Notes: generated from the letters alone by a model not told the origin. A stretch of DNA of 64,000 nucleotides from an uncultured Acidimicrobiaceae bacterium (GCA_963804255.1 CAWDPK010000006.1:126559-190558), one strand, 5' to 3'; numbered from the stretch's first letter, positions 5,391 to 57,770 are shown. Numbers and translations are program-made.

Positions 5391-5434
5391 ATCGTCACCA
5401 CCACCTGGATTCTCGGTGGTTCGACTCTTTGCTC

Positions 5435-38816: not shown

Positions 38817-39668
38817 TCAGTCCAGCGCGACGATCGACGCGCAGTTGTCGATCGGGTAGCCCCCGGCGTAGCGCATCGTCTCTCCAGCGACACCGGGTTG
38901 TTGCTGGAGCCGATAGTCGAAGAGCACCGGTTCGTCGATGTTTCCTGCCGCCGTGTTCTGTGCGATGAGATGCCATCCCCGGGAGTACGTGAACGTTTCA
39001 CCGTTGGGAGAGTTGCCGCCGTTGGTGAACGCCGCGAGCACCAGGTCGGGTCGACCGGTCGTCGATTCGTCCGTGTACACCGCGCTCTCGGTGCTATCGG
39101 TCCGCACGGTCGGGCCGCTCGTCGATCCGCCGGACATGTCGACCGAGACCTTCCGAGGCACTCCGGTGAACTCGGCCAGCACCGCTGTCACATCGCTGTT
39201 TGTCCCCGGTGGCACAGCGACCACCGGCAGCGAGAGCAGGCCCCCTGGGTTGTCAGGGTAGAAGTAGATCGCGCTCTGGAGCCCCCCGGTCGAGTATCCG
39301 CCCGTGCCGCCGTCGGCGGTGTTGCCACCGATGACGTCGCGCCCGAGCGTCCAGTGGGGGAGAAGAACCTTGGGCTGGGGCATCCCGCTCGTCTGCACCC
39401 CGTCGATGACGGCCGCCACCAGCAGGTCCCCGGCAGCGGTCGGCCGGTTGAAGCGAGCATGGACGGTCAAGGGCCCCTCGACGCCGGCGTCGGGAGACCC
39501 GGCTACAACGGTCTCTCGTTCTTGCAACACCCGCGGATGCCACGAACCGCCCGGGACCGAAAGGCTGGCCGCCAGCCGGGTTCGTGCGGCAAGGGCCACC
39601 GGGGATGGCCGATCGACCACGGCCAGTGACACGAGGGCCACCGCCGCCAGAAGGACCGCCCGTCTCAG
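38817..39668 (-). CDS. secreted hypothetical protein, last gene of the GNAT operon
   Basis: The GTG at 39641 gives a poor signal peptide. A CTG at 39668, overlapping the upstream TGA (CTGA), would give (M)RRAVLLAAVALVSLAVV. The protein is Gly/Thr-rich and no family was recognised. Confidence 0.6.
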   Translation of the reverse strand: MRRAVLLAAVALVSLAVVDRPSPVALAARTRLAASLSVPGGSWHPRVLQERETVVAGSPDAGVEGPLTVHARFNRPTAAGDLLVAAVIDGVQTSGMPQPKVLLPHWTLGRDVIGGNTADGGTGGYSTGGLQSAIYFYPDNPGGLLSLPVVAVPPGTNSDVTAVLAEFTGVPRKVSVDMSGGSTSGPTVRTDSTESAVYTDESTTGRPDLVLAAFTNGGNSPNGETFTYSRGWHLIAQNTAAGNIDEPVLFDYRLQQQPGVAGETMRYAGGYPIDNCASIVALD

Positions 39669-40804
39669 CCCTGGACCCCGTCGATGTCCGCCGTGTCCGA
39701 TGCCGGGGCGGCCTGGCGGCCCAAGGCCCGTCGGGACCAGCCGACCAGCCGCAGCACCCCCCTATCGACGGGCCCTCCCACCGCCACCACCAGGCTGACC
39801 ACCGGCCGGCGGTCGGGGAACATCCGCAGCATGGTCTGATTGCCCTCGAAGGTGCAGCTGTCGATCCATTGCACACCGTCGAAGGTGTTGAAGTGATCGA
39901 GGACCTCGAGATGGAGCTGGATGCCGGGGGTGTACTTGGCGAAGGTCTCGTCGTAGGAAGCCTTGAGCAAGAAGAGCCCGTCACCGGCCCGCAATCCGAG
40001 CTGGATGGCCATGGTCTGGCCTGCCCCTTCCAACGTGTACACGCGCAGGCGACCCGCCGCCCGGAATCGGCCGCACATGTCCTTGAACCAAGCCGCCTCG
40101 TCGGGGTGCTCAGCCAAGGCGACCCCATTCTTTCCCTTGTATCCGGCGCCCTCCATCCTGACGAAGGTGTCGATCACTTCGGGGTCGTCGCTGCGGTCCA
40201 CAAACTGGATCTCGGCACCAATGTCGTCGCTCATACGTCGACGGAGTCGGCTCACGTTGTTAAGGAACTTGCGCCCGTGAACCGCCCGGTAATCCCCATC
40301 GTCGCGTCGGTGGATGATCGGGCGGACCCATGAGTGGTACTCGTAGGTGAGAAAGCCCAGTTCTTCGGCTGCCGCGCGAACATGCGTTGACGCGGGCCCG
40401 TCGTCGAGCCAGTCAAAGACCACCAGCCCAGCGCCGTGGTCGCCCGAGGCGTTGCCCAACGCAACCAGCATGGCGCGCATGGCGTCGCGACCACGATCTC
40501 GGTCGAGCAAGGGCGTGCTGTCGTACGGCATGCGGCGCACCTCGGAGCTGAGCACCGGCCGCCGCAGGCGGCGCCAGTGCCCGAAGCGTTGAACCGGAAG
40601 GCACCCGAAGAGATCTCCGTCCTCCTCAGCCAGGACAAGGAGAATGGCCGGACCGTTCTTCAAGTGTTCGGCCGCCGGCACGACGCAATCGGGCTCGGAC
40701 AACGGGTTGGGCTGCCCAGCTCGCTCAGCAAGCGTTCGCCAGTGGACCTCGTCGTGGTCGGTCAGCTCGCCGACGGTGATGATCCGCCCGTTCACGTCAG
40801 CTCC
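39665..40804 (-). CDS. GNAT-fold acetyltransferase, Acetyltransf_6 (CelD/BioF2/FemAB-like) family
   Basis: Paralog of 41167..42297. EVHWRTLAERAGQPNPLSEPDCVVPAA, FLNNVSRLRRRMSDDIG, FVRMEGAGYKGKNG, GLFLLKASYDETFAKYTPGIQL. The start was chosen by alignment to the paralog (GTG 40804); the ORF track extends to 41050. Confidence 0.75.
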   Translation of the reverse strand, partial: GADVNGRIITVGELTDHDEVHWRTLAERAGQPNPLSEPDCVVPAAEHLKNGPAILLVLAEEDGDLFGCLPVQRFGHWRRLRRPVLSSEVRRMPYDSTPLLDRDRGRDAMRAMLVALGNASGDHGAGLVVFDWLDDGPASTHVRAAAEELGFLTYEYHSWVRPIIHRRDDGDYRAVHGRKFLNNVSRLRRRMSDDIGAEIQFVDRSDDPEVIDTFVRMEGAGYKGKNGVALAEHPDEAAWFKDMCGRFRAAGRLRVYTLEGAGQTMAIQLGLRAGDGLFLLKASYDETFAKYTPGIQLHLEVLDHFNTFDGVQWIDSCTFEGNQTMLRMFPDRRPVVSLVVAVGGPVDRGVLRLVGWSRRALGRQAAPASDTADIDGVQG

Positions 40805-41166
40805 CGGCGCATCATGTCGCCTGACTTGCGGCTCTCCGGCGAGGGACACCGTGAGCGGCGGAGGGTCCGGACAGACTGCCGATTCCCAAGCCAGAAAGTG
40901 TGGCACACCCCGGCGGGCCAGCCGGGGCATCTCGGCGGCTCGGACGCTCGCCACGCAGGCACGCTCGGTGGGGCTGGCTGCGGCAAGGCAAGGATGCCTT
41001 GAGGGGTCCGGGATGATCGGCATAGCGGGCGTCGCCGTCTTGCCCGTCATGGGCGTCCGCCCTGAGGGGTACCGTCCCGATGTTGCCGGTGGGCGTCACC
41101 CTACAATTGCTCGGCCGGCGTCTCCGGCACTACTGGGGAGCCCGTGACCAACGGCGGACGTGGGTA

Positions 41167-42297
41167 ATGGACACTCGGATCGTGTCGGTACAACAGCTGG
41201 TCGACGACGAGGTCCGCTGGCGGGACCTCGCCGCGAACGCCCTCGAACCCAATCCCGCCCTCGATCCCGATCTTCTGGGCCCCGCCCTTTCCCTGACCCA
41301 CGCACAGGTCGATCTTCGCTTCGTCGTGGTCGAGGCAGACGGTCGTCTCGAGGCGTGCCTCCCGATACGCCCGATCGACCGATGGCTCCGCTTTCGGCGT
41401 CGTGCCTTCACCACGCGCCTCGATGACGCTCCGGTCCCGGTCCTCCCGATCCTGGCGGCGCCGCTCGTGCGGGCCGAGCACGGCGAGCAAGCCATACACG
41501 CGGTACTGGCCTGCCTGGTGGCAGAGACCGCCCAAGCAGCCATCGGACTGCTCGTCCTCGAGCGGCTGGACGAAGGTCCCGTGGCCACGCTGATCAGCGA
41601 CGCGTGCCGCACGTTACGGCTCCCCACCTGCTCTTACGAGCGTTGGGAACGACCGGTCCTGCGACGCCGGGATGACAGCGCCGACTGGTCGGCCGGAATC
41701 AGCCCTCAGCGACTCCGGGATCTCGGCAAGAAGCGTCGCCGTTTGGAGCGGTCGGCCGGGGAGGTCCGGATCCTCGATCGCGGTGGCGATGGCACGGCGA
41801 TCGATGACCTCCTGGCGATGCAGGCGTCCGGTTGGAAGGCCGCCGCCGGCACGGCCGTGGTCTCAGACCCGGTGAAGACGGCCTTTTTGCGGGAGTCCTC
41901 GGCACGATTGGCCACGGCATCCCGCCTGCATCTCATTACGCTCGACGCCGGCGGCACCCCGGCCGCGATGTGCTTGGCCGTCGAGTGCGGAAGTCGCCTG
42001 TTCCTCTTGCACCTCGATTTCGATCCGAAGTTCGCGCAATTCAGCCCGGGGGGCCAACTCGAAGCGGCGTTGTCAGAGTTCTTCCACGCCTCGACGACGG
42101 CGGACGTGATGGACCCGGTCTGTGCGCCGTCCAACGCGTTTCATGCGCATTTTCTCCCGGACCGCTTGGAGGTGTCCTCCTCTGCCCTTGCTATCGGAGG
42201 GGTACCCGACCGGGCGCTGGTTCGCGCCGCTCCGTACCTATTCGAGGCCCGACATCTGTTTCGCGCGGTGAGCCAGAGACGGTCGTCGGTTGGCTAG
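41167..42297 (+). CDS. GNAT-fold acetyltransferase, Acetyltransf_6 (CelD/BioF2/FemAB-like) family, paralog
   Basis: ATG 41167 (MDTRIVSVQQLVDDEVRWRDLAANALEPNPALDPDLLGPA), RLRDLGKKRRRLERSAG, LLAMQASGWKAAAG, RLFLLHLDFDPKFAQFSPGGQL. Confidence 0.75.
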   Translation: MDTRIVSVQQLVDDEVRWRDLAANALEPNPALDPDLLGPALSLTHAQVDLRFVVVEADGRLEACLPIRPIDRWLRFRRRAFTTRLDDAPVPVLPILAAPLVRAEHGEQAIHAVLACLVAETAQAAIGLLVLERLDEGPVATLISDACRTLRLPTCSYERWERPVLRRRDDSADWSAGISPQRLRDLGKKRRRLERSAGEVRILDRGGDGTAIDDLLAMQASGWKAAAGTAVVSDPVKTAFLRESSARLATASRLHLITLDAGGTPAAMCLAVECGSRLFLLHLDFDPKFAQFSPGGQLEAALSEFFHASTTADVMDPVCAPSNAFHAHFLPDRLEVSSSALAIGGVPDRALVRAAPYLFEARHLFRAVSQRRSSVG

Positions 42298-42444: not shown

Positions 42445-44133
42445 TCAGGCCGAGTCGGGCCAAGGAAGAGCGGCGACGTGCTCGGGCGCGAAGTGACCCA
42501 CCAGGTGGTCGGTCATCCGCCGGGTGACTTCGAGGCGCTGCCACGCCGGCATCAGGGCGTGATCGAGGTCGTCTATCACCTCGAGGCGGATGTGGCCCCG
42601 GCCCGCACGCCGGTCGGGGCTCTCCTCGTTCGCCGAGCCGAACGGGCGGGCCTCGTCCCTCCCGCAGATCACCAGCACCTCGACCCCGTCGTCTCGGAGC
42701 TGACCGAGCCAGTTCGACGGGTCGCGACCACGGTTGAGGAGGTGGGCGACCCGCCAGGCCAGCTTGCGCAGGCGGCGTCGGAGCCCACCGATGGGCAACC
42801 ACCGGTAGGCCCGGACAAAGCGGGTGGTCGGTTGGCAGATGCGCCGGCGGGGATCCATCGCGCCGGCGGCCAGCTCGGGCGGGTTGAAGTGCAGGATCGG
42901 GTTGACCGCGTAGACGGCCCGGGGCGCCCGGGCGAGCGCGTTCTCGAGGGCCTGGTAGCCGCCCGAGCACAGGCCGACCAAGATGACATTGGTCGGGTCG
43001 TCGGGCTCGAGCGCCGCCGCCGCGTCGGTGACGTCGTCGAAGGCCTCGGGCGCCCGGACCACGTGGGGCTCTTGGCCGGGTCGGACCGGGCTGTCGCCCA
43101 ACCCGCTCTCGTCGAACCGGACGCAGCGGAATCCGGCCGCCGCCCAGCGGCGGGACAGGTCCACCCACAGCCGGTTCGGTCCGACGTGCCAGTCGTTGCC
43201 GCAGTTCAACATGAGGATCGTCGGTGCGTCGGCGTCGAACCTCGGGCTCGAGCGCGATGCCGAAGAGGCCGAGCGGGCCCAGTCGGAGGATCCGCTCGGT
43301 GAGGAGGTGGCCGTCGAAGGGGACCGGGGCGGCGTCTCGGGCGACCACCGAGACCGGGCTCGGCTCGGCGCGATTGCCCGATTCCAGCCACGAGACGATG
43401 TGCTCGATCGTCTGGTGGGGGATTTGGTGATAGAGCGGCTCCACCTCGAGCAGCTGCGCTTGTCCGCGCCGCCTCGCCCTCGTGCGCGACCGCACCGAGG
43501 GCAGCCACCAGCTCGGTGGGCGGCCGGCGCGTCGGGCCGGGTGAGGAGCAACACGCGGTCGGGCGGGGCCGACGCGGCGGGGATGGCCAGTGAGCTGAGA
43601 TCGTTCACCGTTTCGGCGCTGAACACGAAGCCGGGGAGATCGGTGTCGTCGCCGGGGTCTTGGCGGACGTCGCTGCGCAACCGCTGGAGGGCCATCTGCT
43701 CGCGCACGAACCGGCGTCCCGAACCGCAGGGATCCCACAGCACCACCGCGTCGAGCGATCCGAGGCGGGCCGCCTCGACCGCCGCCAGCAGCGCGCCGAC
43801 CCGCATGCCGACCACCGAGACGGCTTCGGGGCCACAGGAGCGGGCGAGGTCGACCGCGTGAGCGATGCTGGCCAGCCAGGACTCGACCCGGTGGGGATCG
43901 AGGTCGTCGCCGGCCGAGTCGCCGGTTCCGTCGTAGTCGAAGCGGACCGCCAGCATGCCCGCCCGGGCCAGCGCCTCGGCCAAGAGCCGGTAGCAGTACT
44001 GGGTGCTGGTCAGTTCGCGGGCAAGCGGGGGGCACAGCACGACCGCGCCGCGGGCCTGGCCACCCTCGGGGACGTGCACCCAGCCGAACAACGGACGCTG
44101 GGAGGGGCCGAACCAGAGCGGGGTGGCGGTCAA
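42445..44133 (-). pseudogene. fused tandem alpha/beta hydrolases (resembling exosortase-A-associated hydrolase 2 + hydrolase 1), about 3 frameshifts
   Basis: Domain 1: LFGWVHVPEGG..GAVVLCPPLARE, LAVRFDYDGTGDSAGD, VVGMRVGALLA, VVLWDPCGSGRRF. Domain 2: ILMLNCGNDWHVGPNRLWVDLSRRWAAAGFRCVRFDESGLGDS, ILVGLCSGGY. The inter-domain part (QAQLLEVEPLYHQIPHQTIEHIVSWLESG...FGIALEPEV) is in other frames between about 43525 and 43240. Confidence 0.75.
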
Positions 44134-44143
44134 TGGCGCGTTC

Positions 44144-46613
44144 CTAGGGCTGGAGGCGGAGACGACCCTCCCAGTTTACGGCCCGCACCGTCGCCACCGG
44201 CGGTTCCTCGGCCCCGGCCCGGCGAAGCGGGACGACCCGGGTGGAGTCCGGGGGGAGATGGAACCACGAGTCGTCGGGCCGGTATCCGGGGGCCTCGATC
44301 GACAGCCACTGGGCCAACCGGCGGGTGGAGACCTCGACGTTCCAGCCGCCGGCATCTCCTCGGGGCGCCAGCGTGGCGGCGAGCCCGAGGTCGGGTTCCC
44401 GGGCCCGCCCCTGGCCGCCCACCAGGTGGACCGCCTGTGACAGGAGCGACCCGTCGGGATCGAGCAGGGTGGCCGCCACCACGTCGTAGGCGGGCGGGCC
44501 GAAACGATACGCGTAGGTGATGTCTCGGAACCCGCCCAGCAGGGTCTCCGCGTCCAGCACGACCGCGCCGCGCGCCGCGATCTTGATCGACTGCTCACCG
44601 GTGTCGACGAGCCGTTCGCCGCCCGCGTAGAGCCGGACGACGACGCTGGCTCCGAGCTCCGATGCGGTGTCGTTCACGACGTGCAGGGCCAACCCGTTCA
44701 ACCCCTCGTCGCTCAGAAGGAGGGCGACCGGCTGAGAGACCCGGCGCAGGGCGTACCAGGTCGACTTGGGCACCCCCGAGCGCGTCGACGAGCCCCCATC
44801 CGGGGCCCGGCTCGAAGTCGTCCAGGGCGACGATCAACCCGCCGTCGCACGACGAGCCGGGACGACGCCACTCGGTGAAGACGGCCGACACCAACTCGGC
44901 GTTGGTCGCCCGGCGCAGCTCGAGCATCCGTTCGGGATCGGTGTAGCGGACCATCAGCGGGTCGATCCCGAACAGCTGGCGCGCGTAGAAGGCCCCGACG
45001 TCCTCCATGTCCCAGGATCGGCCGGCGTCGCGATAGACGGTGGCCTTCCACCTCGGGTCGTGGCCCGAGCCGAGGGCGCCACCGCACGCGTCATCGACCG
45101 TGGTCGGCTCGGGCGGCGTCGCCAACAGCAGGCACTCGGCGGCGAAACGGACCCCCGAACGCCGGGGGTCGTCGAACGGCCGCAGGTAGCCGCCCACGCC
45201 GAAGTACTGGCTCACCCCTGCGTTCATGCGGAAGGGGAGCGTGCCCGCGGTCGGGTTCGAGCGCACATAGGGCGTGTCGGGCGCGAGGTCCCTGATCAGG
45301 GCCGGCACCACCTCGTCGAAGAACGGGGTCGCGCGCCGGTCCTCGGCCAACCCCTGCATCGCCGCCATCTCCTCGACTTCCTGGTTGCCGCAGACGACGG
45401 CCAAGCACGGGTGGGAGGCGGCCTCGGTCAGCGCCTCGGCCACCTCGGCGCTGGCTTCGGCCACCCAGGCTTCGTCGTCGGGCGGGTCGGTGAAGGCGAA
45501 CATGCAGTCCTGCCACACCAAGATGCCGAGCTCGTCGCAGAGGTCGAAGAAGCGCCGGTCGGCATAGGTGGTCGTACCGGGGACGCGAAGCATGTTCAGG
45601 TGGCCGTCTCGGGCCAGCCCGACCAACCGGCGCAGCCGGTCGTCGCTCGGCGCCAGCGTGACTGGGTCGGGCGGCATCCAGGCCGCGCCCCGACAGAAGA
45701 TGCGTTGGCCGTTCACCACCACGCCGAAGGCGCCCCCGTCCCGGTCGACCTCGATCGTGCGGAACCCGACCGACCCGAGCGAGCAGGTCTCGCCGTCGAT
45801 CTCGGCGGTCACCTCGTAGCGGGGTTGCGCGCCGTGGGTGTGCGGCCACCAGCGTTCCACCCCGGCGATCCGGAGGCTGGCCGTGCCCACGAACCCGTCC
45901 CCCTCTCGCGCGAAGCGCAACGGGGCGTCGTCGGGGCCGGCGGCGACCCGGGCCGCCACCGGTGGGGCAGCCGGGCCCGAGACGGCCAACGTCACCTCGA
46001 CCACGCCGTCGTCACCGTCACAGCTGGCGACGAGGTGCCGGGAGACAATCTCGTGGCCGTCCATGGTGACCACGCGCACCGGACGCCACGGCCCGACCGG
46101 CAACGGGACCGGCGTCCACCCCGGAACCCGGCCGAGCAGGCTGGTCCGGAGCCACCGGATCGACTGGTTGGAGACCATGACCGTCTTCCAGCGGGGCCGG
46201 GGGCGACGGGTGGCCAGCAGGGGCCCGAGGGCCGCACAGCGGATCACCAGCTCGTTACCGACCGCCAGCGGCGCCACCTCGGCTCGCAGGGTCCGGAACA
46301 TGTTCTCGCCATGGGCGATCGGCTCGCCGTTCAAGTAGACGTCGGCGACGCTCGCCACCCCCTCGAGGATGAGGAGGCACGCCCGGTCCTCGGCGTGGGC
46401 GTCGAACTGGCACCGGAACCACCAGTCCTCGGCGTCGTAGTCGCGTCGAACCGCTTCGAGGCCGGCCGCGGTCAGCGCACCGGCGGCCGTCCCGGGGACG
46501 GTGGCCGGCCACCACGTCGCGGTAGCCCCTTCCAGCCCGTCGGGGTCCACGATCGAGCCGGCCGGGGTGGCGGTGCACTCCCAGGTGGCCCCGGCCAACA
46601 GGTCAGTGCCCAT
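44144..46613 (-). CDS. glycoside hydrolase family 2 protein (beta-mannosidase-like), 1-nt frameshift at a G/C run near 44775
   Basis: ATG 46613 overlaps the end of DUF1839. WWFRCQF, LILEGVASVADVYLNGEPI, VNGQRIFCRGAAWMP, NMLRVPGTTTYADRRFFDLCDELGILVWQDCMFA, VVCGNQEVE. The C-terminal domain continues in ORF 44144..44773 (PKSTWYALRRV...). Confidence 0.8.
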
Positions 46614-47581
46614 CGCGCCCAATGAGGTCGGCCATCGCCGACTCCCAGGAGTCCTCCAGCTGGTCGAAGGGCCCTCCGAGGTCGACCGAGCGCCCCCGGG
46701 TCGCCCGGGCCAACAGGAACTCAAGCGATTTCATCCCGACAGCCAGGGACCGGAAGTGCTCGGCGGCCGCCGGGACGGCCGGCTCGGCCCCGTCGTGGCG
46801 GCCCAGCCACTCGGCAAGGTCGGCGGCCAGTTCCGCGTTGGCCCCGCACTGGCGGACCGTGCCGAACGCGTAGCGGTGGAAGACGTCGATGTCCTCGGCC
46901 CGGAGCCACGGCAGGTCCTCTTCCAATCGCTTGCGCAGGCGGGCGACCGGGTTGGTGGCCGGGCGCCTGTCCAGGTGGTCCCGGGCCAGCTCCAGCGCGG
47001 CGGCGACCGGCACCGCGGCCGGGTCGCGGATCGCGTCGAGGCGGACCGTCTCGACATAGGGCGGCAGCACCGCCGGCTCGTGCGCCCCGAGCCCGAACAG
47101 CGCGTCGAAGTCGTCGCCGCCGAGCTCGTAGTACGAGGTGTTGTGGAAGTACCCGAGTGCCCGGTCTTCCACATCGATCATCTGGACCATGACCGTCGTC
47201 TTCTGGTGGCCGCAGTGGTAGGTGAGCCCGGCCGTGTCGGGCAGATGCCAGGCGTCGACGTCGATCGTGACCATGCGGCGGGCGGACACCAGCTCGACCA
47301 CGTGATCGACGAGCGGGCGCCAGACGTTGAGCTCGTCGAACTCCACGCCGAAGAGCACCCGGAGGTCCTCGGCGGCGAACTTGAACATCCGCCACTGGTC
47401 GCCGTCGAAGTCGGCAGCTCAGGGTGAACCCCATCGCCGCTATCGGGTCGAAGCCGAGCGCGTGCAGCGCCTCGATCCACAGGTCGGCCGCGCAGTTGGT
47501 CTCTTGGAAGATCCGGGACTGCCCGTGCACCCGATGGGGCCGATAGGTGGCCGGTTCGAGCGAGAGGACCTCGTGTCTCAC
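46603..47581 (-). CDS. DUF1839 family protein, 1-nt frameshift near 47420
   Basis: The GTG at 47581 overlaps the ligase stop (GTGA). RIFQETNCAADLWIEALHALGFDPIAAMGFTLS, then in the next frame DFDGDQWRMFKFAAEDLRVLFGVEFDELNVWRP...IDVDAWHLPDTAGLTYHCGHQKTTV..LGYFHNTSYYEL. The family assignment is from my memory of DUF1839 motifs. Confidence 0.6.
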
Positions 47582-48494
47582 GGGAAGAGCTGCGCGCGTA
47601 CCGAGCCGGGCCAGTCGGCCGGGTCGAGCCCGTGGCGCACCAAGAGCGCCACGGTGATGCGGTCCACCCCGAAGGCGACGCAGGCGCTGTGGGCGATCTC
47701 GCCGGTCGCGGTCTCGATGTGGAAGGGCAGCCCGAAGTGGTCGCGGTGGCAGTTGGCCGACATGATGGCGGTCGGATGCTCCGGCGAGTAGATGGGGCTC
47801 ACGTCCCTCCAACTTCAGCTCCTCTTCGAGCTGACCGGCCGCCAGCGCCGAACCGAGCCGACCGAAGAACGGGTCGTTGGCCGGGACCGGGGTCACGTCG
47901 AGCCCGAGCTCTCTCAGCAAGTTGAGCCCGTGTGCAAGGCCCTCGTCGCGGTGGCGCTGGGCCTCGTCGGGGTCGCCCACGTAGACGACCTCGTGCATGT
48001 TGAAGGCCTGCATGCGAGCCGGGTCGGCGCTCGGTTCGTGGCGGAAGCAGAACCCGCTGACCTCGTAGCGCCGGCCGCCGGCGGGCAACCGGCCCGATGC
48101 ACATGGGGTAGAGGGCGTGACAGGCCGCCGACGAGAGCACGACCTCGCCCGGGTCGAGCAGGGCCGGCCAGTCGCCTGTCGGCCTCCACGCGCCGCAGCA
48201 GCTCGGCGTGGTCACGGTCGTTGCCCCGAAAGACGTGCACCGACCCCATGAGATCGGGGAACGACTGGAGGTAGTTGGTCGAGTCGAACGTGCGCGCGGG
48301 CCAGCACCGGGGGGAGATGCACCATCGTCGCCCCGAGCCCGCGGCCCCACCGATGCACCATGCGAGTCGATCGCGTTGACGATCCCCTGGTAGGTCTCCG
48401 AGCGACCGTAGAGGCCCTCGACCCCGGTGGGGAAGAGGAGCTCGGCGTCGAGCAACCGGTCGCGTAACTCGCGGTGGGGATCGGGGCCGGCCAC
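47578..48494 (-). pseudogene. amino acid--[acyl-carrier-protein] ligase (truncated SerRS-like class II synthetase homolog), about 5 frameshifts
   Basis: Pieces in three frames: LLFPTGVEGLYGRSETYQGIVNAID / VHLPPVLARA / RTFDSTNYLQSFPDLMGSVHVFRGNDRDHAELLRRVEA / GDWPALLDPGEVVLSSAACHALYPM / GGRRYEVSGFCFRHEPSADPARMQAFNMHEVVYVG...ANDPFFGRLG...EEELKLE / SPIYSPEHPTAIMSANCHRDHFG...AHSACVAFGVDRITVALL. There is no tRNA-binding arm. Confidence 0.75.
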
Positions 48495-48496
48495 GA

Positions 48497-49648
48497 TCAG
48501 GATTCCTTGTAGATCAGTAGCAGCTGCGCGTTGTCACCCAAGATCCGGTCGTTGTTGACCATCAGCGCCGCACCGTGCGCGTCTCGCAGCAGCCGACCCA
48601 TGGCGAACGGCGAGCGTTGGCTGTAACCGGCCATGCCGCAGATGCCGAGCGCGCGGGTGACGATGTCGACGACCAACGTGGACGCGGCCACCTTCAACGA
48701 GTTGAACGACAGACGCGAAGCCCATCGACTGGTCTTCGCCGCGGGCCCGGTGGTCGAAGCGTTCCGCCGAGGCACGCACCATCGCACTCGAGCTGCTGGT
48801 GCACGACGACCATCTCGGCCAGGCGCTGCGCCCCGGCCGGGGTGGTGCCGGGGTTCTTGCGGGCCTCGCCCTGGACGAAGTTGCGGGCCTTGGCCAGCGC
48901 CGCCGAGGCGAGGCCCAACCACACGAAGGCCCACAGCACGTGGGACACCGGCAGCATGGTCCGCCGCGGCGATGTCGCCGAACGGATCGGTCAGCACCTG
49001 GTCGAGATCGCCCTCGGCCCGCAGCACGAACCCGGGGCTGCAGGTGCCACGGAATCCGAGGGTGTCCCACTCGGTGGTCTGCTCGAGCACGAGGCCCGGA
49101 GGGGTGCAAAGGACGAGCACCTGGTCGCTCGGCGGCGCGTCGGGGCCGCGCCGACAGGTGGCGAGGATGGCGTCGGCGTGGGACCCGTAGGAGATGACGC
49201 CAGCCTGCTTCTCCAGCGTGAAACGGTTCCCGATGGCTTCCAGCGCGCACTTGCTGGTGCGCAGCTGGCCGCCCACCCCGACCTCGGTGGTGGCCGAAGC
49301 GAGCAGGAGCTGACGGTCGGCCACCTCGGCGAGGAAGGTGCGCAGCACCTGGTTGTGGCCGTGCGCGGCCAGGCAGGCCACCTGGAGGTGGTGCATCGCC
49401 AGGATCATGGCGCTCGACGAGCATCGCCGCGAGAGCGCCGTGATCGCGTCACCGGTCTCGCTCATCGTGGCGCCCAACCCACCGAGCTCGATTGGCACCA
49501 ACGCGCCCAGCACGCCGGCCGCCTTCAGCCCCTCGATCGTCTCGACAGGGAAGCGGGCCTGGCCGTCGACGTCATCGGCGTTGGGCGCGGCGAACTCGTC
49601 CGCGATGTGGGTGACGACCTCGAGCATCTCGGCGCGGACGACGGTCAC
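48497..49648 (-). pseudogene. acyl-CoA dehydrogenase family protein, about 3 frameshifts (near 48960, 48787, 48720)
   Basis: The GTG at 49648 overlaps the carrier-protein stop (GTGA). FPVETIEGLKAAGVLGALVPIELGG, LLLASATTEVGVGG, TEWDTLGFRGTCSPGF. The mid part WAFVWLGLASAALAKARNFVQGEARKNPG is in another frame. C-terminus: GICGMAGYSQRSPFAMGRLLRDAHGAALM. Confidence 0.8.
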
Positions 49649-49908
49649 GCCGTCACCGACCGCAGCTGGATCAAGGCGGCCTCGATCGCTGCCACCGACT
49701 CAAAGGTGGCCTTGCGGAGCATCGCCTCGGGGAACTCGATGTCGAAGGCGTCCTCCAGGGCCAGCATGACGTTCACGCTGGCGTGCGAGGTCATGCCGGC
49801 CCGGAACAGGTCGTCTTGGTCATCGAGCGTGGCCATGTCGACCGGCAGGCGGGCGTGTTCGCTCAGCACTCGGCGGATCTGGTCCCTCATGGTCGGCTCC
49901 TCAGTCAT
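49645..49908 (-). CDS. acyl/aminoacyl carrier protein
   Basis: The ATG at 49908 overlaps the AcpS stop (ATGACTGA). 87 aa, with DDLFRAGMTSHASVNVMLALEDAFDIEF (phosphopantetheine Ser in GMTSH). Confidence 0.8.
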   Translation of the reverse strand: MTEEPTMRDQIRRVLSEHARLPVDMATLDDQDDLFRAGMTSHASVNVMLALEDAFDIEFPEAMLRKATFESVAAIEAALIQLRSVTA

Positions 49909-50332
49909 TGCGGCGTTCCATTGTCGGCTGTCCGTCATAGCCAGACGCGGACCCGCTCACCACGACCGCCGCCGCGAGTCCGGCCTCATGGGTCATGCTC
50001 AAGGAGAACGGCCCGAGGCCCCGCTCCACGGCCAGCCGGGCCGCCGAGCCGCGCAGGCGGAGCTTGCACGCCCCGCTCGGGAGCCTGACCACCTCGATGG
50101 TGCGCCAGTCGGGCCGCACTCCGTCTGGTCGCAGCACCTTGATGGTCGCCTCCTTGGCGGCAAAGCGCGCCGCCAAGGATCCCGCTGCGACCTCGGGAGG
50201 GCCCTGGCAACAGGAGATCTCGTGCTCGGTGTACACGCGGCGCAGGTAGCGGTCGCCGAAGTGCCTCACTGAGCGCGCGACCTCGGCGATGTCCACCAGG
50301 TCGACCCCGACAGAGAGGTCTCCCGACGTCAT
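49901..50332 (-). CDS. acpS: holo-[acyl-carrier-protein] synthase (4'-phosphopantetheinyl transferase, AcpS type)
   Basis: ATG 50332. VGVDLVDIAEVARSV, SLAARFAAKEATIKVL, IEVVRLPSGACKLRL, LSMTHEAGLAAAVVV. It is in frame with the upstream flippase C-terminal segments, with no intervening stop. Confidence 0.8.
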   Translation of the reverse strand: MTSGDLSVGVDLVDIAEVARSVRHFGDRYLRRVYTEHEISCCQGPPEVAAGSLAARFAAKEATIKVLRPDGVRPDWRTIEVVRLPSGACKLRLRGSAARLAVERGLGPFSLSMTHEAGLAAAVVVSGSASGYDGQPTMERRND

Positions 50333-51827
50333 GGCGCCGGTCCGATCACCGCGGCCGTCGGCGGTTCGGCCGTCGGCTTGGACATCGACGAACGGATCAG
50401 ACTCGAAGATGCGTCCGATCTCGGCCCGCATCGAGGGCAGGAGCACCAGCACGATCGGAGCCAGGAGCAAGAGCGCCCACGGCATCGCCACCAGCGGGAA
50501 CAGCACCGGTGGGGCGAGTACGGCCACCCACGGGAGAATCTTCTTGTAGCTGAACCTGAACATCTTGCGGACCACGTGGTCGGCGTAGATGAGGTCCACC
50601 AACCCGATCAGCCAGGCCACCCCGTAGCCGTCAAGCCCGATCCTCTTCACCAACACGACCGCGGCGATCCACGAGCGCGATGGTATGGATGGCCATCACG
50701 CCGGTGACAGCCATGTTGCGGCCCCGGCTGTAGAGGAAGGTGGTCTGGATGAAGCCGGACGCCCCCAGCACGGCCGCCAGGGTCAGCAGGCTGTAGAGGG
50801 GGACGGCCTTGGACCACTGGTGGCCGAAGAGGGCCGGCACGAGCCAGCGGGCGGCCACGCCAAAGCAGGCGAGCGGGATGGCCAGCGCAAGCAGCTGGAG
50901 CAGCGACCCCTCCTCGATCGAGTAGCGAAGCCGGCTCTTCTCCTCACTGCCGACTCGCGACATCGCGACCATGCCGAGCCGGTAGGCGCCTCGCTGAGCG
51001 AATCCCATGGTGTCGACCAGGCGTTGGGCGAACGCGACGAACCCGACCCCGGCCGCACCGAAGAAGGTTCCGACGACGAGCGGGTTCACCAGGTCACCGA
51101 GCCGGCTGGCCCACTGGGCGGTCGAGTAGCCGAGGCCGTGGCGAGCCATGTCGCGGATCGCCGATGCCGACCAGTCCCAACGCAACCGGAGCCCCGAGGT
51201 GGCCAAGCTGGCCACGAACAGCCACGTCTGCCAGGCGAAATACCCCGCGATGAGCGACCACGCCTTCGCACCCAGGAACGCCAACGGGATCGCCGTCCCG
51301 TACAGCACCACGTCGCCCCCGAGTTCGATCAGCCCCATCAGGCGATAGCCGAAGCGACGTTCGATGGCCGCCTGGGAGGGCGCCCACAGCACGTTGACCG
51401 GGATGCTGAGCAAGAGGACCCGAAGGGGCAGGAGCACGCCGATCGGGCGCAGCAGGCCGCCCAACGCGAACGTGAGCCCCTCGGAGAACCCGGTGGCGAC
51501 GACCGAAGTGACCAAGAGCAGCGTGAAGGCCTGGTTGTAGTGGCGCGCCACCACCTCCCCGGTCATCCGGATCAGGTAGACCTCGAGCCCCATCTGGGCG
51601 AGGGTCGCCACGAACAGCACGAACGCCGCCGCGCCGCTGTAGATCCCGTAGGGCCCCGGTCCGATCAAGCGAACGACGAGGACGACGCCCACGAGACGGA
51701 TGACCATCCCGATGGCCTCCCGGCCGACCAGATAACCGCCTCCCCGGACCGCCAGCTGACCGAGCGATCGGTGTTCGGTCGGTCCGGTGGGCTCCGGTGC
51801 GTCCGGGACCTGTGGGGGCTGGGACAC
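50333..51827 (-). CDS. polysaccharide flippase (MOP superfamily, Wzx-like), 1-nt frameshift near 50655
   Basis: GTG 51827. 12 or more TM segments. LAVRGGGYLVGREAIGMVIRLVGVVLVVRLIGPGPYGIY. The last TM helices (IAAVVLVKRIGLDGYGVAWLIGLVDLIY...LLLLAPIVLVLLP) are in the frame of ORF 49901..50656. Confidence 0.8.
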
Positions 51828-51863
51828 CTTCCTCCTTGCGCGCTACGGCCGGACAGGCCGGTG

Positions 51864-53267
51864 TCATCGCCCGCGCAGCTGGTCAGCGGCCTGACGAAGG
51901 AGGTCTTCGGCTGTGACCATGCTGCCGGCGCTCGCCGACGCGATGGAGGAACGGGCCAGCAACCCGCCGGTGCTCGACTCGATGCCGGCGGTGAGCGAGG
52001 TCACCGACCGCTGACGGATCGTGTCGAGGTCGACGGCGCCGGGCCGCAGGTCGACCAGGACGGCAAACAGCGCCGGGCCGATACGGGCCACCATGTCGCG
52101 GTCGCGCAGGTGATTGGTCAAGCGACCGGCCACCGTCATCAACGCGGACGGGCTCAGCGGCTCGGTGCCGTTGGACGGCGACACCTCGACGAGGATCAAC
52201 CCCACCATGCCCTCGTTGTTGCGGACGTGGGCGAGGGAGGCGCTCAGCCTTCCGACCAGCCTCGTCAACGTGGCCAACCCGGTGACGGGATCCGGGCCGA
52301 GCAAGGCATCGAGGTCATCGCCGACCGCGGCGGGCGCGATAACGACCGGCTCGTCTTGGCGAGTCCCGAAGGTGGACGGCGTCTCGGAAGCGACTACCGG
52401 CGTCACGGGGAACGCCTCCGGCGGGGCCGGGGCCGGGGCCGGCGACGGCACGGCGGCCTCGACCCACTCGATCTCGTCGAGACCGAGGAACTCCCAGTCG
52501 TCGGGGCGACTGGCCTGGCTCGGCGCGGCCGATCCCCATCCGCCACCGGTCGGCACGAACGCATCGGCGGCCTGGTCGAGCGGGTGCTCGTCCACCACGT
52601 CGTCGAGGGGCTCGTCGAAGTGGGTCGAGGTTTCCGGCTCCATGTAACCGATCAGCGGGGGAGAGGCCGGAGGTTCGGAGGTCGGCGCGGCGGCGTTGGT
52701 GACGAACGGTGTCTCGACCATCGGCTCGTAGGCCGGCGGGGCGGGCTCGGGTGCCGGTTCCGGCACGGCCGGGGCGGCTTGTGCAGTGAACGTCGTCGCG
52801 CCCTCGAGAACCTGCTGGCGGGCCCGAAGGTACGAGGTGAGTCGGCCGGCGAGGTTGCCGAGGAGGTTCAGCTGGTCCTGCTCGAAGTGGCCGGCCAGCG
52901 GTTCGGCAACGCACAGGAGCCCCCAGGGGTGATCGGGCGCCTCGGGGTCGCTCAGCGCGGCCGCGGCGAGCTTGATGTGGTGACCCTGGCCGGTCCACAT
53001 GCCCTTCAGGACGCGTCCGCTTCGCACGAGCACGGTGCCGCCGGTCAAGTGCGGGTCTTCCCAGGTCTGGCGGACCAGCTCGTCGATCGCCTCGACCGAC
53101 CAGCTGGGGTCCGCGGTCAGCGAGGGAAAGGTCGCGATCGCGAAGCCACCGTCGGCCTTGCGCAGCGCCGCGAACGCCAGCGAGACACCGCACTGGGTCT
53201 TGGCCATCCGCAGAAGATGGCCGACTCCGCCGTGGGCTCCGTTGCTGCTTCCTTGGTCCTCAGTCAT
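51864..53267 (-). CDS. GAF domain / Pro-rich linker / degenerate GGDEF domain protein
   Basis: N-terminal GAF-like region (GVSLAFAALRKADGGFAIATF...WGLLCVAEP). A roughly 130-aa Pro/Ala/Glu-rich linker. C-terminal DPVTGLATLTRLVGRLSASL...GLILVEV...RDRDMVARIGPALFAVLV, where GGDEF is replaced by IGPALF. Confidence 0.7.
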   Translation of the reverse strand: MTEDQGSSNGAHGGVGHLLRMAKTQCGVSLAFAALRKADGGFAIATFPSLTADPSWSVEAIDELVRQTWEDPHLTGGTVLVRSGRVLKGMWTGQGHHIKLAAAALSDPEAPDHPWGLLCVAEPLAGHFEQDQLNLLGNLAGRLTSYLRARQQVLEGATTFTAQAAPAVPEPAPEPAPPAYEPMVETPFVTNAAAPTSEPPASPPLIGYMEPETSTHFDEPLDDVVDEHPLDQAADAFVPTGGGWGSAAPSQASRPDDWEFLGLDEIEWVEAAVPSPAPAPAPPEAFPVTPVVASETPSTFGTRQDEPVVIAPAAVGDDLDALLGPDPVTGLATLTRLVGRLSASLAHVRNNEGMVGLILVEVSPSNGTEPLSPSALMTVAGRLTNHLRDRDMVARIGPALFAVLVDLRPGAVDLDTIRQRSVTSLTAGIESSTGGLLARSSIASASAGSMVTAEDLLRQAADQLRGR

Positions 53268-55116: not shown

Positions 55117-56265
55117 TTAGGTGTCGACGGCCTTGCCGATGGGGGTGATGTCGCCCGCCTCGGCCACCGAGTGGAGCGTTGTGGCCGCCTTGGGGAAGTC
55201 GCCCCCGGTGACCGCCCAGGACCCATAATCCCAGGTCACAGCGGCAAAGAGGTGTTGGTGGTCGGCCCAGCGGAGGAACTGGCTCACGAATGTCGGATTG
55301 TCGCCGCCGCCCGATTGCGCGACCGGCGCGAGCCCCCATTTGGCGATCATGAACGGCTTCTTGTGGGCCTCGGCGAAGGTCGAGAACCAGTTGGGGCCGT
55401 AGGGGGCCTCCGCGAACTCGTTCCACCCGAAGCCGACCACCGTCGGCCCCACGTCGAACGCGTCGGTGGCCACGATGTCCACGTACGCGTTCCCCGGATA
55501 GAGCGCCGCGGGGAGCACCGGGTCCGAACCGGGCGCGGGGTCCCAGGCGAACTGGAACTGCTCACCGGAGACCGAACGCATGGAGGTCACGATCTGGCGC
55601 CAGTAGGCCACGTACTCGGCCGCCGCCGCTGCCGTGGTTGCCGCCCACGGCAAGGTGGAGGCCTCGGGGTCCCAGCCGAGCATGATCACCGAGCTGGCCT
55701 GGCCGTTCTCCACGAGCGTGTAGGCCAGTTGGCTGAAGTAGGCGTCGTACTGGCCGGACGCGCCGGCGGCCAGGGTGGCCCCGGTCGTCGGCAGCATCGG
55801 GACACCCCAGATCATCCGGAAGCCCGACCCGCTCCAGCGCTGCACGAACCAGATCGGATTGGCGATCGTCTGCCAACTCGAGCCGTCCAGGTAGTCGAAC
55901 GCGTACGGCACCGGCGCGCCGGCGTCGGCGCTGAACGCCGTTGCGGCGACCGGGGAGCCCGGACCGGCGTAAACACCGAGGGGCACGGTCTGTCCGATGG
56001 GCTTGGTGGTGGGTGTGGTCGTCTTGGGCGTGGTGCTCTTAGGAGCGGTGCTCTTGGGCGTGGTCGTCTTGGGAGCGATGGTTGGCGCGGACCGGGTCGC
56101 GGTGACGCCGGGCGTGTTGACGGCGTTCTCGGAGACGACCAGCACGAGTAGCCCCACGGCCACCCCCATGGCCGCGATGAGCGTGAGGGTTGCCAACAGC
56201 TGGCGCGGGCGGAACGCGCGGGCGACGCGGTGCCTCAACACCCGGAACTCTCGGCGCAATGTCAT
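55117..56265 (-). CDS. membrane-anchored glycoside-hydrolase-like protein (GH26-like TIM barrel, tentative)
   Basis: N-terminal TM and a Thr/Pro/Lys linker, then WGVPMLP, LGWDPEAS, YWRQIV, LYPGNAYVDIVATDAFD, KKPFMIAKWGL. The family call is tentative: a Glu at the expected nucleophile position was not evident. Confidence 0.55.
   Translation of the reverse strand: MTLRREFRVLRHRVARAFRPRQLLATLTLIAAMGVAVGLLVLVVSENAVNTPGVTATRSAPTIAPKTTTPKSTAPKSTTPKTTTPTTKPIGQTVPLGVYAGPGSPVAATAFSADAGAPVPYAFDYLDGSSWQTIANPIWFVQRWSGSGFRMIWGVPMLPTTGATLAAGASGQYDAYFSQLAYTLVENGQASSVIMLGWDPEASTLPWAATTAAAAAEYVAYWRQIVTSMRSVSGEQFQFAWDPAPGSDPVLPAALYPGNAYVDIVATDAFDVGPTVVGFGWNEFAEAPYGPNWFSTFAEAHKKPFMIAKWGLAPVAQSGGGDNPTFVSQFLRWADHQHLFAAVTWDYGSWAVTGGDFPKAATTLHSVAEAGDITPIGKAVDT
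56016..56075 (-). repeat. 4 imperfect 15-nt tandem repeats encoding a PK(T/S)T(T/A) linker
   Basis: tggtcgtcttgggcg / tggtgctcttaggag / cggtgctcttgggcg / tggtcgtcttgggag. Confidence 0.8.
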
Positions 56266-57770
56266 CGGACACCTCCCGCTCGAACGAGTGCCGCCGAAGC
56301 GACCTCGGGTGTGCCAACCGCGCGCCGGTCAACCGGACGCGGCACCGCGATGGCCAGGAGGCACCAGAGCACTTGGGGCAGGCCGCCGTTGCTCAGGAAC
56401 GGCCAGATGAAGTTCATGGCGAGCATTGCGACCACCGTGACCGCGAGGGCGCGGCCGAGCGCCTGGTCGAAGGGATCCTTCGAGCGAGCGGCTTCACGGC
56501 TCCGCTTGAGCATGACCAAGGCGAGGCCGGCGAAGAGGACCAGCAGCGGGATCCCGCCCTCCATGAGGAACGAGATGTACTGGGACTCGGGGTAGCGCCA
56601 CTGGATGGAGGCGGGGAGATTCACCCCGTAGCCGCCGAGGGGCCGCGCCTCGATGGCGGGGATGTACTGGGTGGTCCAGACATTCCAGCGGTAGTCGAGG
56701 GTCTGGGGGACGCCGGCATGGCGACCGGAGCCCGCGCTCGAGGAGAACTCCTGGTTGAGCCGCGTCGCGAGGAACGGCGCAGCGACCAGCGCCCCGATCA
56801 CCACCGCCGCCCCGGCGAACCGCAACGCGCGTCGGCCTTGTCCGTACTGGACCGCCAACACGACGGTGCCGATGGAGAGCAAAAGGATCGCGGAGAGCTC
56901 CTCGGTGAGCAAGAGTCCCGTCAGCGCGACCACGCCGATGATCCAGGCGGCCCGGCGGTGTCGGCCGATCTGCCCGGACAACGTGAGGGCGCACAGGACG
57001 AGCAGGAGGGGAAGGAGATAGCCGGCCAGCACGGCCCAGTTGTCGAACGGTCCGGTCGCCCGGGTGCTGGTACCGACCGAGGTCGGCCCGTACAGCCCAC
57101 CGGTGGCCGTGGTGAGGAAACGAACCACCGACCCGACACGCAGCTGCTGGAGCACGGCCAACAGGGCGACCGGCACGGCGGCGACGAGGAGCACCGCCAC
57201 CGCGGTGCGGCGCTCGGCCTGGGTGCGCAAGGAGGTGCGCACGGCCCGATAGATGATGAAGAACTGGAGCTGTCCGAAGACGGTGCCCCAGCCGGTGAGG
57301 CTCAGATGCTGGTCGAGGGTGATCGCGTCGACCGTGCCGAAGATCGCCCACCCGGCGCCGTAGGCCAAGAGCAACCAGTCGAGGCTGGACCAGGGCACGG
57401 CGTCGGACCGGCGCGCCGAGATGAGCACGGTCGCCCCGACCACTCCGATGAGCAGCTCTGAGACTCGAACGTGGGCGACCGGGACACCGGGAGCCATGCC
57501 CGAGAGGATCGGCACGGCCCCGACCAAGACGAGTCCGCCGATGACCGGCCGGAGCAGGACGGCTACCACCAGGGCCAAGCCGGCCAACGCGGCCAACCCC
57601 ATGTCGGGCTTTCTCACGACGACGAAGCCCAGCACGAACGCGAGGACGACGGCGCCAAGGCCGAGCAAGATCGGCCGGGGCCGCTCGGCGAACCAGCTGT
57701 TGTCGGGCGTTCCGGCGCGCCGTCTCCCCGCAGGGCGAAGGAGTGCGGCCTCGCCCGGCTCAGCCCACAC
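56262..57770 (-). CDS. O-antigen ligase / polymerase-like (Wzy_C family) membrane protein
   Basis: 502 aa, more than 10 TM segments, one large loop (…TSVGTSTRATGPFDNWAVLAGYLL…). The stop overlaps the next ATG (ATGA at 56262-56265). Confidence 0.75.
   Translation of the reverse strand: MWAEPGEAALLRPAGRRRAGTPDNSWFAERPRPILLGLGAVVLAFVLGFVVVRKPDMGLAALAGLALVVAVLLRPVIGGLVLVGAVPILSGMAPGVPVAHVRVSELLIGVVGATVLISARRSDAVPWSSLDWLLLAYGAGWAIFGTVDAITLDQHLSLTGWGTVFGQLQFFIIYRAVRTSLRTQAERRTAVAVLLVAAVPVALLAVLQQLRVGSVVRFLTTATGGLYGPTSVGTSTRATGPFDNWAVLAGYLLPLLLVLCALTLSGQIGRHRRAAWIIGVVALTGLLLTEELSAILLLSIGTVVLAVQYGQGRRALRFAGAAVVIGALVAAPFLATRLNQEFSSSAGSGRHAGVPQTLDYRWNVWTTQYIPAIEARPLGGYGVNLPASIQWRYPESQYISFLMEGGIPLLVLFAGLALVMLKRSREAARSKDPFDQALGRALAVTVVAMLAMNFIWPFLSNGGLPQVLWCLLAIAVPRPVDRRAVGTPEVASAALVRAGGVR

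Follow-up and report, generated by a model that had tools for sequence, protein, structure and literature searches.

Amino acid:[carrier protein] ligases reportedly charge carrier proteins (CPs) in vitro, in work that Mocibob et al. are said to have described in 2010 and 2013, and the substrates of one of them, Bll0957, are said to be of the Gly/Ala type. The described members, Bll0957 and Bll6282 of Bradyrhizobium and Atu2573 of Agrobacterium (PDB 3MEY, 4H2S-4H2Y), have a class II core of the seryl-tRNA synthetase (SerRS) type, a Cys/Glu/Cys site, and an adjacent gene for a cognate CP. We analyzed a ligase of the same family encoded in a 64,000-nucleotide stretch of DNA from an uncultured Acidimicrobiaceae bacterium (GCA_963804255.1 CAWDPK010000006.1:126559-190558), here called the window. 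In contrast to the Bradyrhizobium and Agrobacterium systems, this ligase belongs to an actinobacterial cassette that lies, with its own AcpS, in a Wzx/Wzy operon. The reading that we prefer, and to which we give an even chance, is that an aminoacyl-CP cassette was inserted into, and became translationally coupled with, a Wzx/Wzy exopolysaccharide (EPS) operon in an Acidimicrobiaceae lineage; that it serves aminoacyl transfer from the CP to a sugar acceptor; and that the single-base insertions interrupting several of its genes in the window are errors.

A preliminary description of the window knew of no earlier account of the gene pairing seen there, but the neighborhood had already been recorded. 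A supplement published in 2023 (PMC10318531) lists, around proteobacterial DUF1839 genes, a GH2 gene at position -1, an amino acid-[ACP] ligase at +1, an acyl-CoA dehydrogenase (ACAD) at +2, and an acyl carrier protein (ACP) at +3. The same order (ACP, ACAD, ligase, DUF1839, GH2, alpha/beta hydrolase) is annotated by PGAP on plasmid p2 of Azospirillum brasilense (NZ_CP032341), and from the CP to the hydrolase the proteobacterial order is identical to that of the window. The proteobacterial copies examined differ in lacking AcpS and flanking Wzx/Wzy genes. The cassette is already catalogued, and NCBI models name both its ligase and its CP.

DltABCD D-alanylates teichoic acids, and AlmEFG adds glycine to Vibrio lipid A. 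Both systems follow the logic also seen here, in which a dedicated ligase places a small amino acid on a CP for delivery to an envelope glycopolymer or glycolipid; for the cassette, the acceptor is only proposed. The differences are that the window ligase has the class II aminoacyl-tRNA synthetase (aaRS) fold and not the ANL fold, that no MBOAT or LpxL-type transferase is present, and that ACAD, DUF1839, and GH2 have no counterpart in DltABCD or AlmEFG. A different comparison is offered by CtaG, CcbD/LmbD, BtrH, and AsbE, papain-like amide-forming transacylases that depend on CPs and share with DUF1839 an N-terminal Cys (invariant in DUF1839) and a context that includes a dedicated CP and a loading ligase. 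Unlike CtaG, CcbD, and BtrH, DUF1839 has no sequence-level membership in the group and a reported C-(T/S)-H site in place of Cys-His-Asp, and its CP is loaded by an aaRS homolog, not by an ATP-grasp or ANL enzyme. The exosortase-A (PEP-CTERM/EpsH) module resembles the cassette in that hydr2_PEP and hydr1_PEP are the best matches of the window hydrolase and in that a ligase and a CP lie beside EPS genes; its ligase is of the ANL type, whereas that of the window is of the aaRS type, and the hydrolase scores fall well below the family cutoffs. By analogy, the cassette would work like Dlt/Alm and like BtrH/CcbD, and it is a member of neither group.

The string occupies positions 42445-53267 of the minus strand. 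Pfam and NCBIfam searches found all genes named in the preliminary description, in the order given there. Coordinates were mapped from an intact relative, metagenome contig L001, except for those of the GGDEF-like gene, which were taken from the window's own list of open reading frames (ORFs); for the ligase, CP, hydrolase, ACAD-like, and GH2-like proteins, the intact L001 orthologs were used in family searches (NCBIfam, PDB, and domain confirmation). In order of transcription, the genes are:

51864-53267, minus strand: degenerate GGDEF protein (467-aa ORF; Pfam GGDEF E 1.6e-5, partial match)
50329-51707, minus strand: Wzx-type MOP flippase (Polysacc_synt_3, 109 bits; intact 458-aa ortholog in contigs L001 and L002)
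49901-50332, minus strand: AcpS-type 4'-phosphopantetheinyl transferase, 143 aa, intact (Pfam ACPS E 1.5e-13; TIGR00556 66.8 bits, cutoff 45.35)
49645-49908, minus strand: CP, 87 aa, intact (PP-binding E 1.8e-7; NF005480 101.8 bits, cutoff 72)
48497-49648, minus strand: ACAD-fold flavoenzyme, 382 aa in relatives (Acyl-CoA_dh_N, Acyl-CoA_dh_1)
47578-48494, minus strand: amino acid:[carrier protein] ligase, 303 aa in relatives (NF005479 371.7 bits, cutoff 357)
46603-47581, minus strand: DUF1839 protein, 325 aa (PF08893 274.8 and 50.9 bits on two pieces)
44144-46613, minus strand: GH2-like protein of beta-mannosidase type, 822 aa in relatives (Glyco_hydro_2_N2, Mannosidase_ig, Ig_mannosidase)
42445-44134, minus strand: double alpha/beta-hydrolase fusion, 560 aa (best matches hydr2_PEP and hydr1_PEP, both below cutoff)

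The stop codon of Wzx overlaps the AcpS start by 4 nt, AcpS overlaps the CP gene by 8 nt (ATGACTGA at 49901-49908), and the CP and ACAD genes share 4 nt (GTGA at 49645-49648). A 2-nt gap separates ACAD from the ligase, which in turn overlaps DUF1839 by 4 nt (GTGA at 47578-47581). The GH2 start (ATG, 46611-46613) lies inside the end of DUF1839 (stop 46603-46605), an 11-nt overlap, and a 9-nt gap precedes the hydrolase gene. The four of these junctions quoted in the preliminary description proved exact. The leading gene had been called GAF/degenerate-GGDEF: the degenerate GGDEF domain is there, with RIGPALF at the motif region in place of GGDEF and an L001 ortholog matching Pfam GGDEF at E 3.9e-7, but no GAF domain was detected by Pfam in the protein or in its L001 ortholog, even at E 0.1. 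The gene string is not a chance arrangement, since its order recurs in three contigs of 90-94% identity, in most of 80 genome loci, and in Azospirillum. A scan for promoters and terminators turned up no promoter-like site and two terminator-like ones, fewer than the shuffle mean and none within the operon, a result that is uninformative for a GC-rich actinobacterium.

The ligase, as represented by its L001 ortholog, scored above the NF005479 cutoff and far below those of the SerRS models (NF002120 53.4 bits, cutoff 611; TIGR00415 37.9 bits, cutoff 489.55). Its best solved relative is Bll0957 (3MEY/4H2W; E about 1e-67, 40% identity). The tRNA-binding domain is missing: the protein has 303 aa, of which residues 111-297 align to residues 307-505 of methanogen-type SerRS, the catalytic core only. 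No variation occurs at C124, E152, and C270 in an alignment containing Bll0957, and we take these residues, by reference to the Bll0957 structures, to be the zinc ligands of the amino-acid site. Pfam gave no match for the ligase pieces in the window or for the intact ligase. Judged by these profile scores and residues, the protein is an amino acid:[carrier protein] ligase and not an ordinary SerRS, as the preliminary description had proposed. It had also called the ligase truncated; the short form is a trait of the family, whereas the fragmentation in the window comes from frameshifts. The CP belongs to the ligase's cognate family (NF005480) and weakly matches DltC (E 0.0046). An exact-sequence look-up of the window CP returned no record.

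Six of the nine genes (Wzx, ACAD, ligase, DUF1839, GH2, and hydrolase) are not continuous ORFs in the window. We aligned the window with three JGI metagenome contigs (L001-L003), reached through an intact 325-aa DUF1839 match of 92% identity. At the DNA level, these contigs are 90-94% identical to the window over the cassette and 82-86% identical in upstream segments, and they hold the same nine genes, all intact (456, 458, 143, 87, 382, 303, 325, 822, and 560 aa). The alignment revealed 16 single-base (+1) insertions between 50668 and 43237, the sole indels across 43-51 kb:

Wzx, two insertions: 50668, 50403
ACAD, three insertions: 48962, 48784, 48713
Ligase, five insertions: 48365, 48293, 48178, 48098, 47803
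DUF1839, one insertion: 47415
GH2, one insertion: 44778
Hydrolase, four insertions: 44133, 43530, 43467, 43237

All 16 are missing from L001 and L002, as are all 11 that fall within the shorter L003 alignment from L003. The insertion at 44133 turns the ATG start of the hydrolase into ATTG, which accounts for the TTG start given in ORF lists. When the 16 bases are removed, every gene reads through without an internal stop; the corrected ligase is 93% identical to its L001 ortholog, and dN/dS of the corrected genes against L001 is 0.16-0.37, the same range as in the unbroken AcpS, CP, and GNAT genes. Programmed frameshifting was rejected as the cause, as the 16 sites share no motif and none is found in the orthologs. 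A PAS-GGDEF gene at 59492-60622 (minus strand), encoding a true diguanylate cyclase, is also broken (its GGDEF piece starts at profile position 18, and its PAS piece ends at position 40 of 113), so the frameshift problem reaches beyond the cassette.

On a rival reading of these data, the frameshifts are genuine and the cassette is a relic that this strain inactivated only recently. The insertions cluster in the cassette genes. Intact in the window are, besides the AcpS and CP genes, those for the GGDEF-like protein and Wzy and numerous long genes outside the cassette, among them those in the left 30 kb with full-length Pfam matches. Uniform sequencing error does not predict such clustering, which weighs against the errors we assume. 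The closest GTDB species, moreover, naturally lacks ACAD, DUF1839, and GH2 within the same flank, which implies that this module is dispensable. Natural decay, however, would give deletions, mixed indel lengths, stops, and relaxed constraint, whereas all 16 events here are +1 insertions of near-random bases (five G, five C, three A, three T), of which only 2 could copy an adjacent base as slippage would; the corrected genes are free of stops and constrained, and the same kind of break interrupts a PAS-GGDEF gene that is unrelated to the cassette. On this pattern, the insertions are best explained by errors in assembly or consensus, or at the utmost by something that happened very recently, and not by decay; the window copy is probably intact in reality, and we regard a relic as distinctly unlikely. 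To call the window copy a pseudogene cluster would require support from the sequencing reads.

To place the cassette among genomes, a degenerate-pattern scan was run on one genome per GTDB species. It found at least 551 ligase relatives, and the best 80 loci were kept. Most of these are from metagenome-assembled genomes of Acidimicrobiaceae; Williamsia, Rhodococcus opacus, Mycobacterium, Mycolicibacterium hodleri, Curtobacterium, and Nocardioides are also represented. The closest of the 80, from a palsa metagenome, is 72% identical. Cassette proteins were searched by tblastn within 10 kb of the ligase, and the 58 loci in which the ligase has 7 kb or more of flanking sequence on each side formed a well-flanked subset. 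The counts were:

CP: 78/80 loci, 57/58 well-flanked
AcpS: 70/80 loci, 53/58 well-flanked
ACAD: 60/80 loci, 44/58 well-flanked
Hydrolase: 59/80 loci, 44/58 well-flanked
DUF1839: 50/80 loci, 35/58 well-flanked
GH2: 44/80 loci, 33/58 well-flanked
Wzx: 17/80 loci, 12/58 well-flanked
Wzy: 13/80 loci, 11/58 well-flanked

DUF1839 and GH2 occur together in 33 of the 58 well-flanked loci; 2 have DUF1839 alone, none GH2 alone, and 23 neither, and DUF1839 was never found without ACAD. The full set is present in 26 of the 58, ACAD and hydrolase without DUF1839/GH2 in 8, and a minimal AcpS-CP-ligase-hydrolase set in another 8. The closest GTDB species (Acidimicrobiaceae palsa_461, PMOQ01000029.1, locus 98-12588; L004) carries only this minimal set, without ACAD, DUF1839, GH2, or GNATs, inside the same GGDEF-Wzx...Wzy-GH26 flank; ACAD, DUF1839, GH2, and the GNATs therefore look like an add-on that is gained and lost within one operon. 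Relatives of the ligase are found on 113 plasmid or chromid records, including proteins of about 40-48% identity annotated as amino acid--[ACP] ligases in Rhizobium, Azospirillum, relatives of Burkholderia, Mycetohabitans, and Cupriavidus. We read the cassette as conserved and horizontally spread. In Williamsia and Mycobacterium, the CP, DUF1839, GH2, and AcpS genes lie on the opposite strand, divergent from ACAD-ligase-hydrolase. Cultured, tractable carriers include Rhodococcus opacus DSM 43205 (L062), Williamsia limnetica DSM 45521 (L060), Curtobacterium sp. (L083), and Azospirillum brasilense p2 (L085).

The DUF1839 family is small: 1.84 billion representatives yield 852 clusters at 50% identity with E <= 0.001. 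In the window, PF08893 matches the two frameshift pieces with 274.8 bits (profile positions 48-310) and 50.9 bits (positions 2-47), against a cutoff of 22.5; it is the sole Pfam match, with none to BtrH_N (PF14399), and when the DUF1839 alignment was used as a profile against PDB sequences, nothing but designed coiled coils matched. An AlphaFold2 model (pLDDT 95, pTM 0.92) is built of two parts, a papain-like part of strands and helices to about residue 180 and a helical part at 192-323. Full-length Foldseek comparison of this model gave AziU2/U3 as best match (E 2e-8), followed by CtaG (E 2e-5, TM 0.57-0.64) and CcbD, including the CcbD-PCP (peptidyl carrier protein) complex (E 2e-4 to 1e-3, TM 0.51-0.57). 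Identity in these matches is 10-16%, and the likeness of the modeled protein to CtaG and CcbD is visible only at fold level. Cys30, in an invariant Asn-Cys motif, His146, and Asp136 are invariant in the alignment, an observation at the level of sequence. CtaG is a papain-like, protease-like ligase that acts on CP-bound substrates, its homologs BtrH and AsbE take PCP-bound donors, and CcbD acylates an amino sugar in lincosamide biosynthesis (PMC12865890). The predicted fold makes DUF1839 a putative CP-dependent transacylase.

In the GH2-like protein, both candidate catalytic Glu residues, E412 and E493, are invariant in 40 of 40 homologs. The AlphaFold2 model of the double hydrolase (pLDDT 90, pTM 0.91) consists of two packed alpha/beta domains. 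In 45 of 51 sequences, a conserved Arg (G-[LM]-R-x-G) takes the place of the nucleophile in the N domain, whereas the corresponding G-L-C-[SA]-G motif of the C domain has Cys at all 48 aligned residues (51 sequences, 3 gapped), and a D522-H523 pair is nearly invariant. The alignment suggests that the Arg-bearing N domain is non-catalytic or re-purposed and is paired with a Cys-bearing C domain. The CtaG/CcbD-type fold of DUF1839 and the Cys nucleophile in the second hydrolase domain are new. The two halves score 96.6 bits with hydr2_PEP (TIGR03101; cutoff 202.75) and 62.4 bits with hydr1_PEP (TIGR03100; cutoff 168.45), so that of the proposed analogy with exosortase-A hydrolases the best-matching families hold but membership does not. 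No exosortase was found among the scanned window ORFs, in a search that was not exhaustive for the window, and a look through the literature for the PEP-CTERM ligase/ACP/hydrolase module brought up nothing usable.

For the ACAD-like protein, the L001 ortholog matched PF02771 (E 1e-15) and PF00441 (E 1.2e-9). Among its PDB relatives, generic ACADs (E 2e-18) rank ahead of the DnmZ/nitrososynthase group (E 1e-13), and with the best NCBIfam match, Rv1679/FadE16, at 102.7 bits (cutoff 600), no subfamily can be assigned. The catalytic base is Glu376 in MCAD and Glu254 in IVD. In a local, and hence tentative, alignment with 7w0j, extended ungapped, the first is Val or Ile in 56 of 57 homologs, and the second coincides, again tentatively, with a gap of 2 residues. 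Since neither of the usual catalytic Glu positions appears to be kept, a standard alpha,beta-dehydrogenase is unlikely. The same tentative lack of both positions leaves the dehydrogenation of PltE/RedW type suggested earlier for this gene unsupported. The PltE/RedW analogy was dropped, models for prolyl-PCP dehydrogenases of the RedW/PigA type scoring only about 32 bits.

The window as a whole contains the flippase, polymerase, and glycosyltransferase of a Wzx/Wzy-dependent polysaccharide locus; a priming phosphoglycosyl transferase was not identified within it. The genes of this surrounding locus and the two next to the hydrolase are:

63112-63999: GT2 glycosyltransferase, in the surrounding glycan locus
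56262-57770, minus strand: Wzy-type polymerase or O-antigen-ligase-like membrane protein, intact (Wzy_C 51.4 bits), in the surrounding glycan locus
55117-56265, minus strand: GH26-like secreted protein overlapping the end of the Wzy gene (Glyco_hydro_26 E 1.7e-4), in the surrounding glycan locus
41080-42297, plus strand, convergent with the operon: Acetyltransf_6 protein, a CelD/FemAB-like GNAT (PF13480 E 1.2e-16; weak BspF match)
39665-41050, minus strand: second Acetyltransf_6 GNAT (PF13480 E 3.2e-21)

The GH26-like gene co-occurs with Wzy in relatives. Every well-flanked locus with a homolog of the GNATs (8 of 8) has DUF1839 as well. Their earlier assignment as CelD/FemAB-like held as far as Acetyltransf_6 is concerned but not for PEP-CTERM FemAB, BspF being the sole NCBIfam model at E <= 0.01.

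Close relatives keep the cassette beside Wzx/Wzy, and by tblastn the two genes together were seen only in the window's own lineage. The embedding in a Wzx/Wzy operon, put forward in the preliminary description, therefore stands for this lineage and its close relatives but not elsewhere, where Wzx is rare and does not track DUF1839. As tblastn with the window Wzx and Wzy under-detects divergent flippases and polymerases, Pfam censuses of neighboring proteins were added. Around eight loci of cultured actinobacteria (80 proteins), GT4 was found 12 times, Wzy_C 3 times, and Polysacc_synt_3, Bac_transf, and GT2 twice each; around 10 other Acidimicrobiia loci (107 proteins), GT4 again came top (5), followed by RecA and unrelated genes. 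A GT2, Bac_transf, GT4, or GT87 gene is directly adjacent in four of eight other Acidimicrobiia loci, and a fifth has a marginal Polysacc_synt_3 match. The link of the cassette to glycan synthesis is frequent, not universal.

Further features of the window were noted. Two proteins without a Pfam match travel with the locus in close relatives, one of 274 aa (38817-39641, minus strand) just past the second GNAT and one of 473 aa with a TM-like segment (57760-59181, minus strand) just past Wzy. A 691-aa protein (2365-4440, minus strand), unrelated to the cassette, combines NHL/SGL beta-propeller repeats with three CWB2 cell-wall-binding domains and has the look of an S-layer-type surface protein. 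ARAGORN called a tRNA-Ala(CGC) of an unusual 84 nt (35116-35199, plus strand) near a step in GC content at 34-36 kb (about 0.60-0.65 to its left, 0.68-0.72 to its right); the edge of an island may lie here, or an insertion may have affected this gene too.

We propose the following route. AcpS, by its family membership, would prime the 87-aa CP with phosphopantetheine. The zinc-dependent, SerRS-derived ligase would then activate a small amino acid with ATP and attach it to the CP as a thioester, by analogy with the in vitro activity of its homolog Bll0957. Where present, the ACAD-fold flavoenzyme, which appears to lack the usual catalytic Glu, may modify the tethered group. DUF1839, if its modeled fold is a guide, would take the acyl group from the CP and pass it to an amine or hydroxyl acceptor, most likely that of a sugar, since its constant partner is GH2-like and its solved relatives include the amino-sugar acylase CcbD. 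The double hydrolase may be a second acyl-transfer enzyme or a thioester-editing one; nothing else in the minimal cassettes is a candidate for consuming the loaded CP. For the window lineage, the acceptor would most likely be the lipid-linked repeat unit of the EPS, with modification taking place in the cytoplasm and flipping by Wzx afterwards; the cytoplasmic placement is suggested by the lack of an obvious signal peptide, judged by eye, in the cassette proteins. A more specific version, which we consider possible but doubtful, is an aaRS-derived route for decorating sugars, independent of the ribosome and of NRPS (nonribosomal peptide synthetase) enzymes, in which a Gly/Ala-type residue on the CP is optionally oxidized by the base-less ACAD and delivered by the DUF1839 Cys to an amino sugar of a lipid-linked repeat unit or a glycoside, which the GH2-like protein binds or trims. 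Of the module for aminoacyl transfer to a glycan that was originally suggested, the family identities and the context in close relatives have held, whereas its novelty, the PltE/RedW chemistry, and a general link to Wzx/Wzy have not.

Several observations weigh against our preferred reading. A 2022 review calls the biological role of these ligases unknown (PMC9437257). The 2023 survey (PMC10318531) describes the papain-like DUF1839 proteins as having a non-canonical, rearranged C-(T/S)-H site; the best fold match, AziU2/U3, is functionally unrelated, being aziridine-forming and not a transacylase (PMC12865890). A fold search with the double hydrolase found only generic lipases, esterases, and feruloyl esterases, with, for example, no PHA-synthase-like match. 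Wzx was detected near the cassette in only 12 of the 58 loci and Wzy in 11, and the Azospirillum copy has no adjacent flippase, so a polymer is not a general acceptor. The same rarity would fit a cassette whose product is a small metabolite that diffuses, for example an aminoacylated sugar or a thiotemplated peptide of short length, and not a decorated polymer, with the Wzx/Wzy neighborhood an accident of the insertion site. All solved relatives of DUF1839 belong to small-molecule pathways, and AziU2/U3, CtaG, and CcbD all come from antibiotic pathways. The Azospirillum cassette stands alone among unrelated genes (an OsmC-family gene and tail-fiber genes in the immediate flanks and, roughly 5-7 kb upstream, genes for a GT9 glycosyltransferase and for a sulfotransferase), and the occurrence on many plasmids and chromids is the behavior of a mobile module. 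We nevertheless think a metabolite unlikely: the 4-nt Wzx-AcpS overlap implies translational coupling to the flippase, glycosyltransferases are the commonest neighbor family in two independent samples of loci, and the cassette is not accompanied by an exporter, a regulator, or a resistance gene of the kind usual in metabolite clusters.

The acceptor could also be a lipid, glycolipid, or protein instead of a polysaccharide, as in AlmEFG. From the ACAD/ACP context, the 2023 supplement (PMC10318531) proposed "fatty acid/phospholipid protein processing" for DUF1839, a guess that differs from our transacylase reading. The CP has its weak DltC match. The Alm and Dlt systems are precedents for aminoacyl-CPs that feed envelope lipids or teichoic acids. 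Against such an acceptor stand the near-obligate GH2 partner of DUF1839 (33 of 35 loci), which points to a glycosidic substrate, the absence from the cassette of an LpxL-type or MBOAT transferase, and the fact that the ligase family activates amino acids, not fatty acids; we rate it very unlikely.

If transfer of an aminoacyl group to a sugar is borne out, it would be the first biological role for amino acid:[carrier protein] ligases and would give DUF1839 its first function, as a glycan N-aminoacyl transferase. The translational fusion of the cassette with Wzx, together with the glycosyltransferase neighbors, is a testable clue to the role of the ligase. Further such clues are the predicted DUF1839 fold, that of CP-dependent transacylases of which one acylates an amino sugar, and the double hydrolase, the most constant downstream partner, with its conserved Cys nucleophile. 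As Azospirillum brasilense, Rhizobium, Rhodococcus opacus, Williamsia, and Curtobacterium carry the cassette and are cultured and genetically tractable, the hypothesis can be tested without the uncultured source organism.

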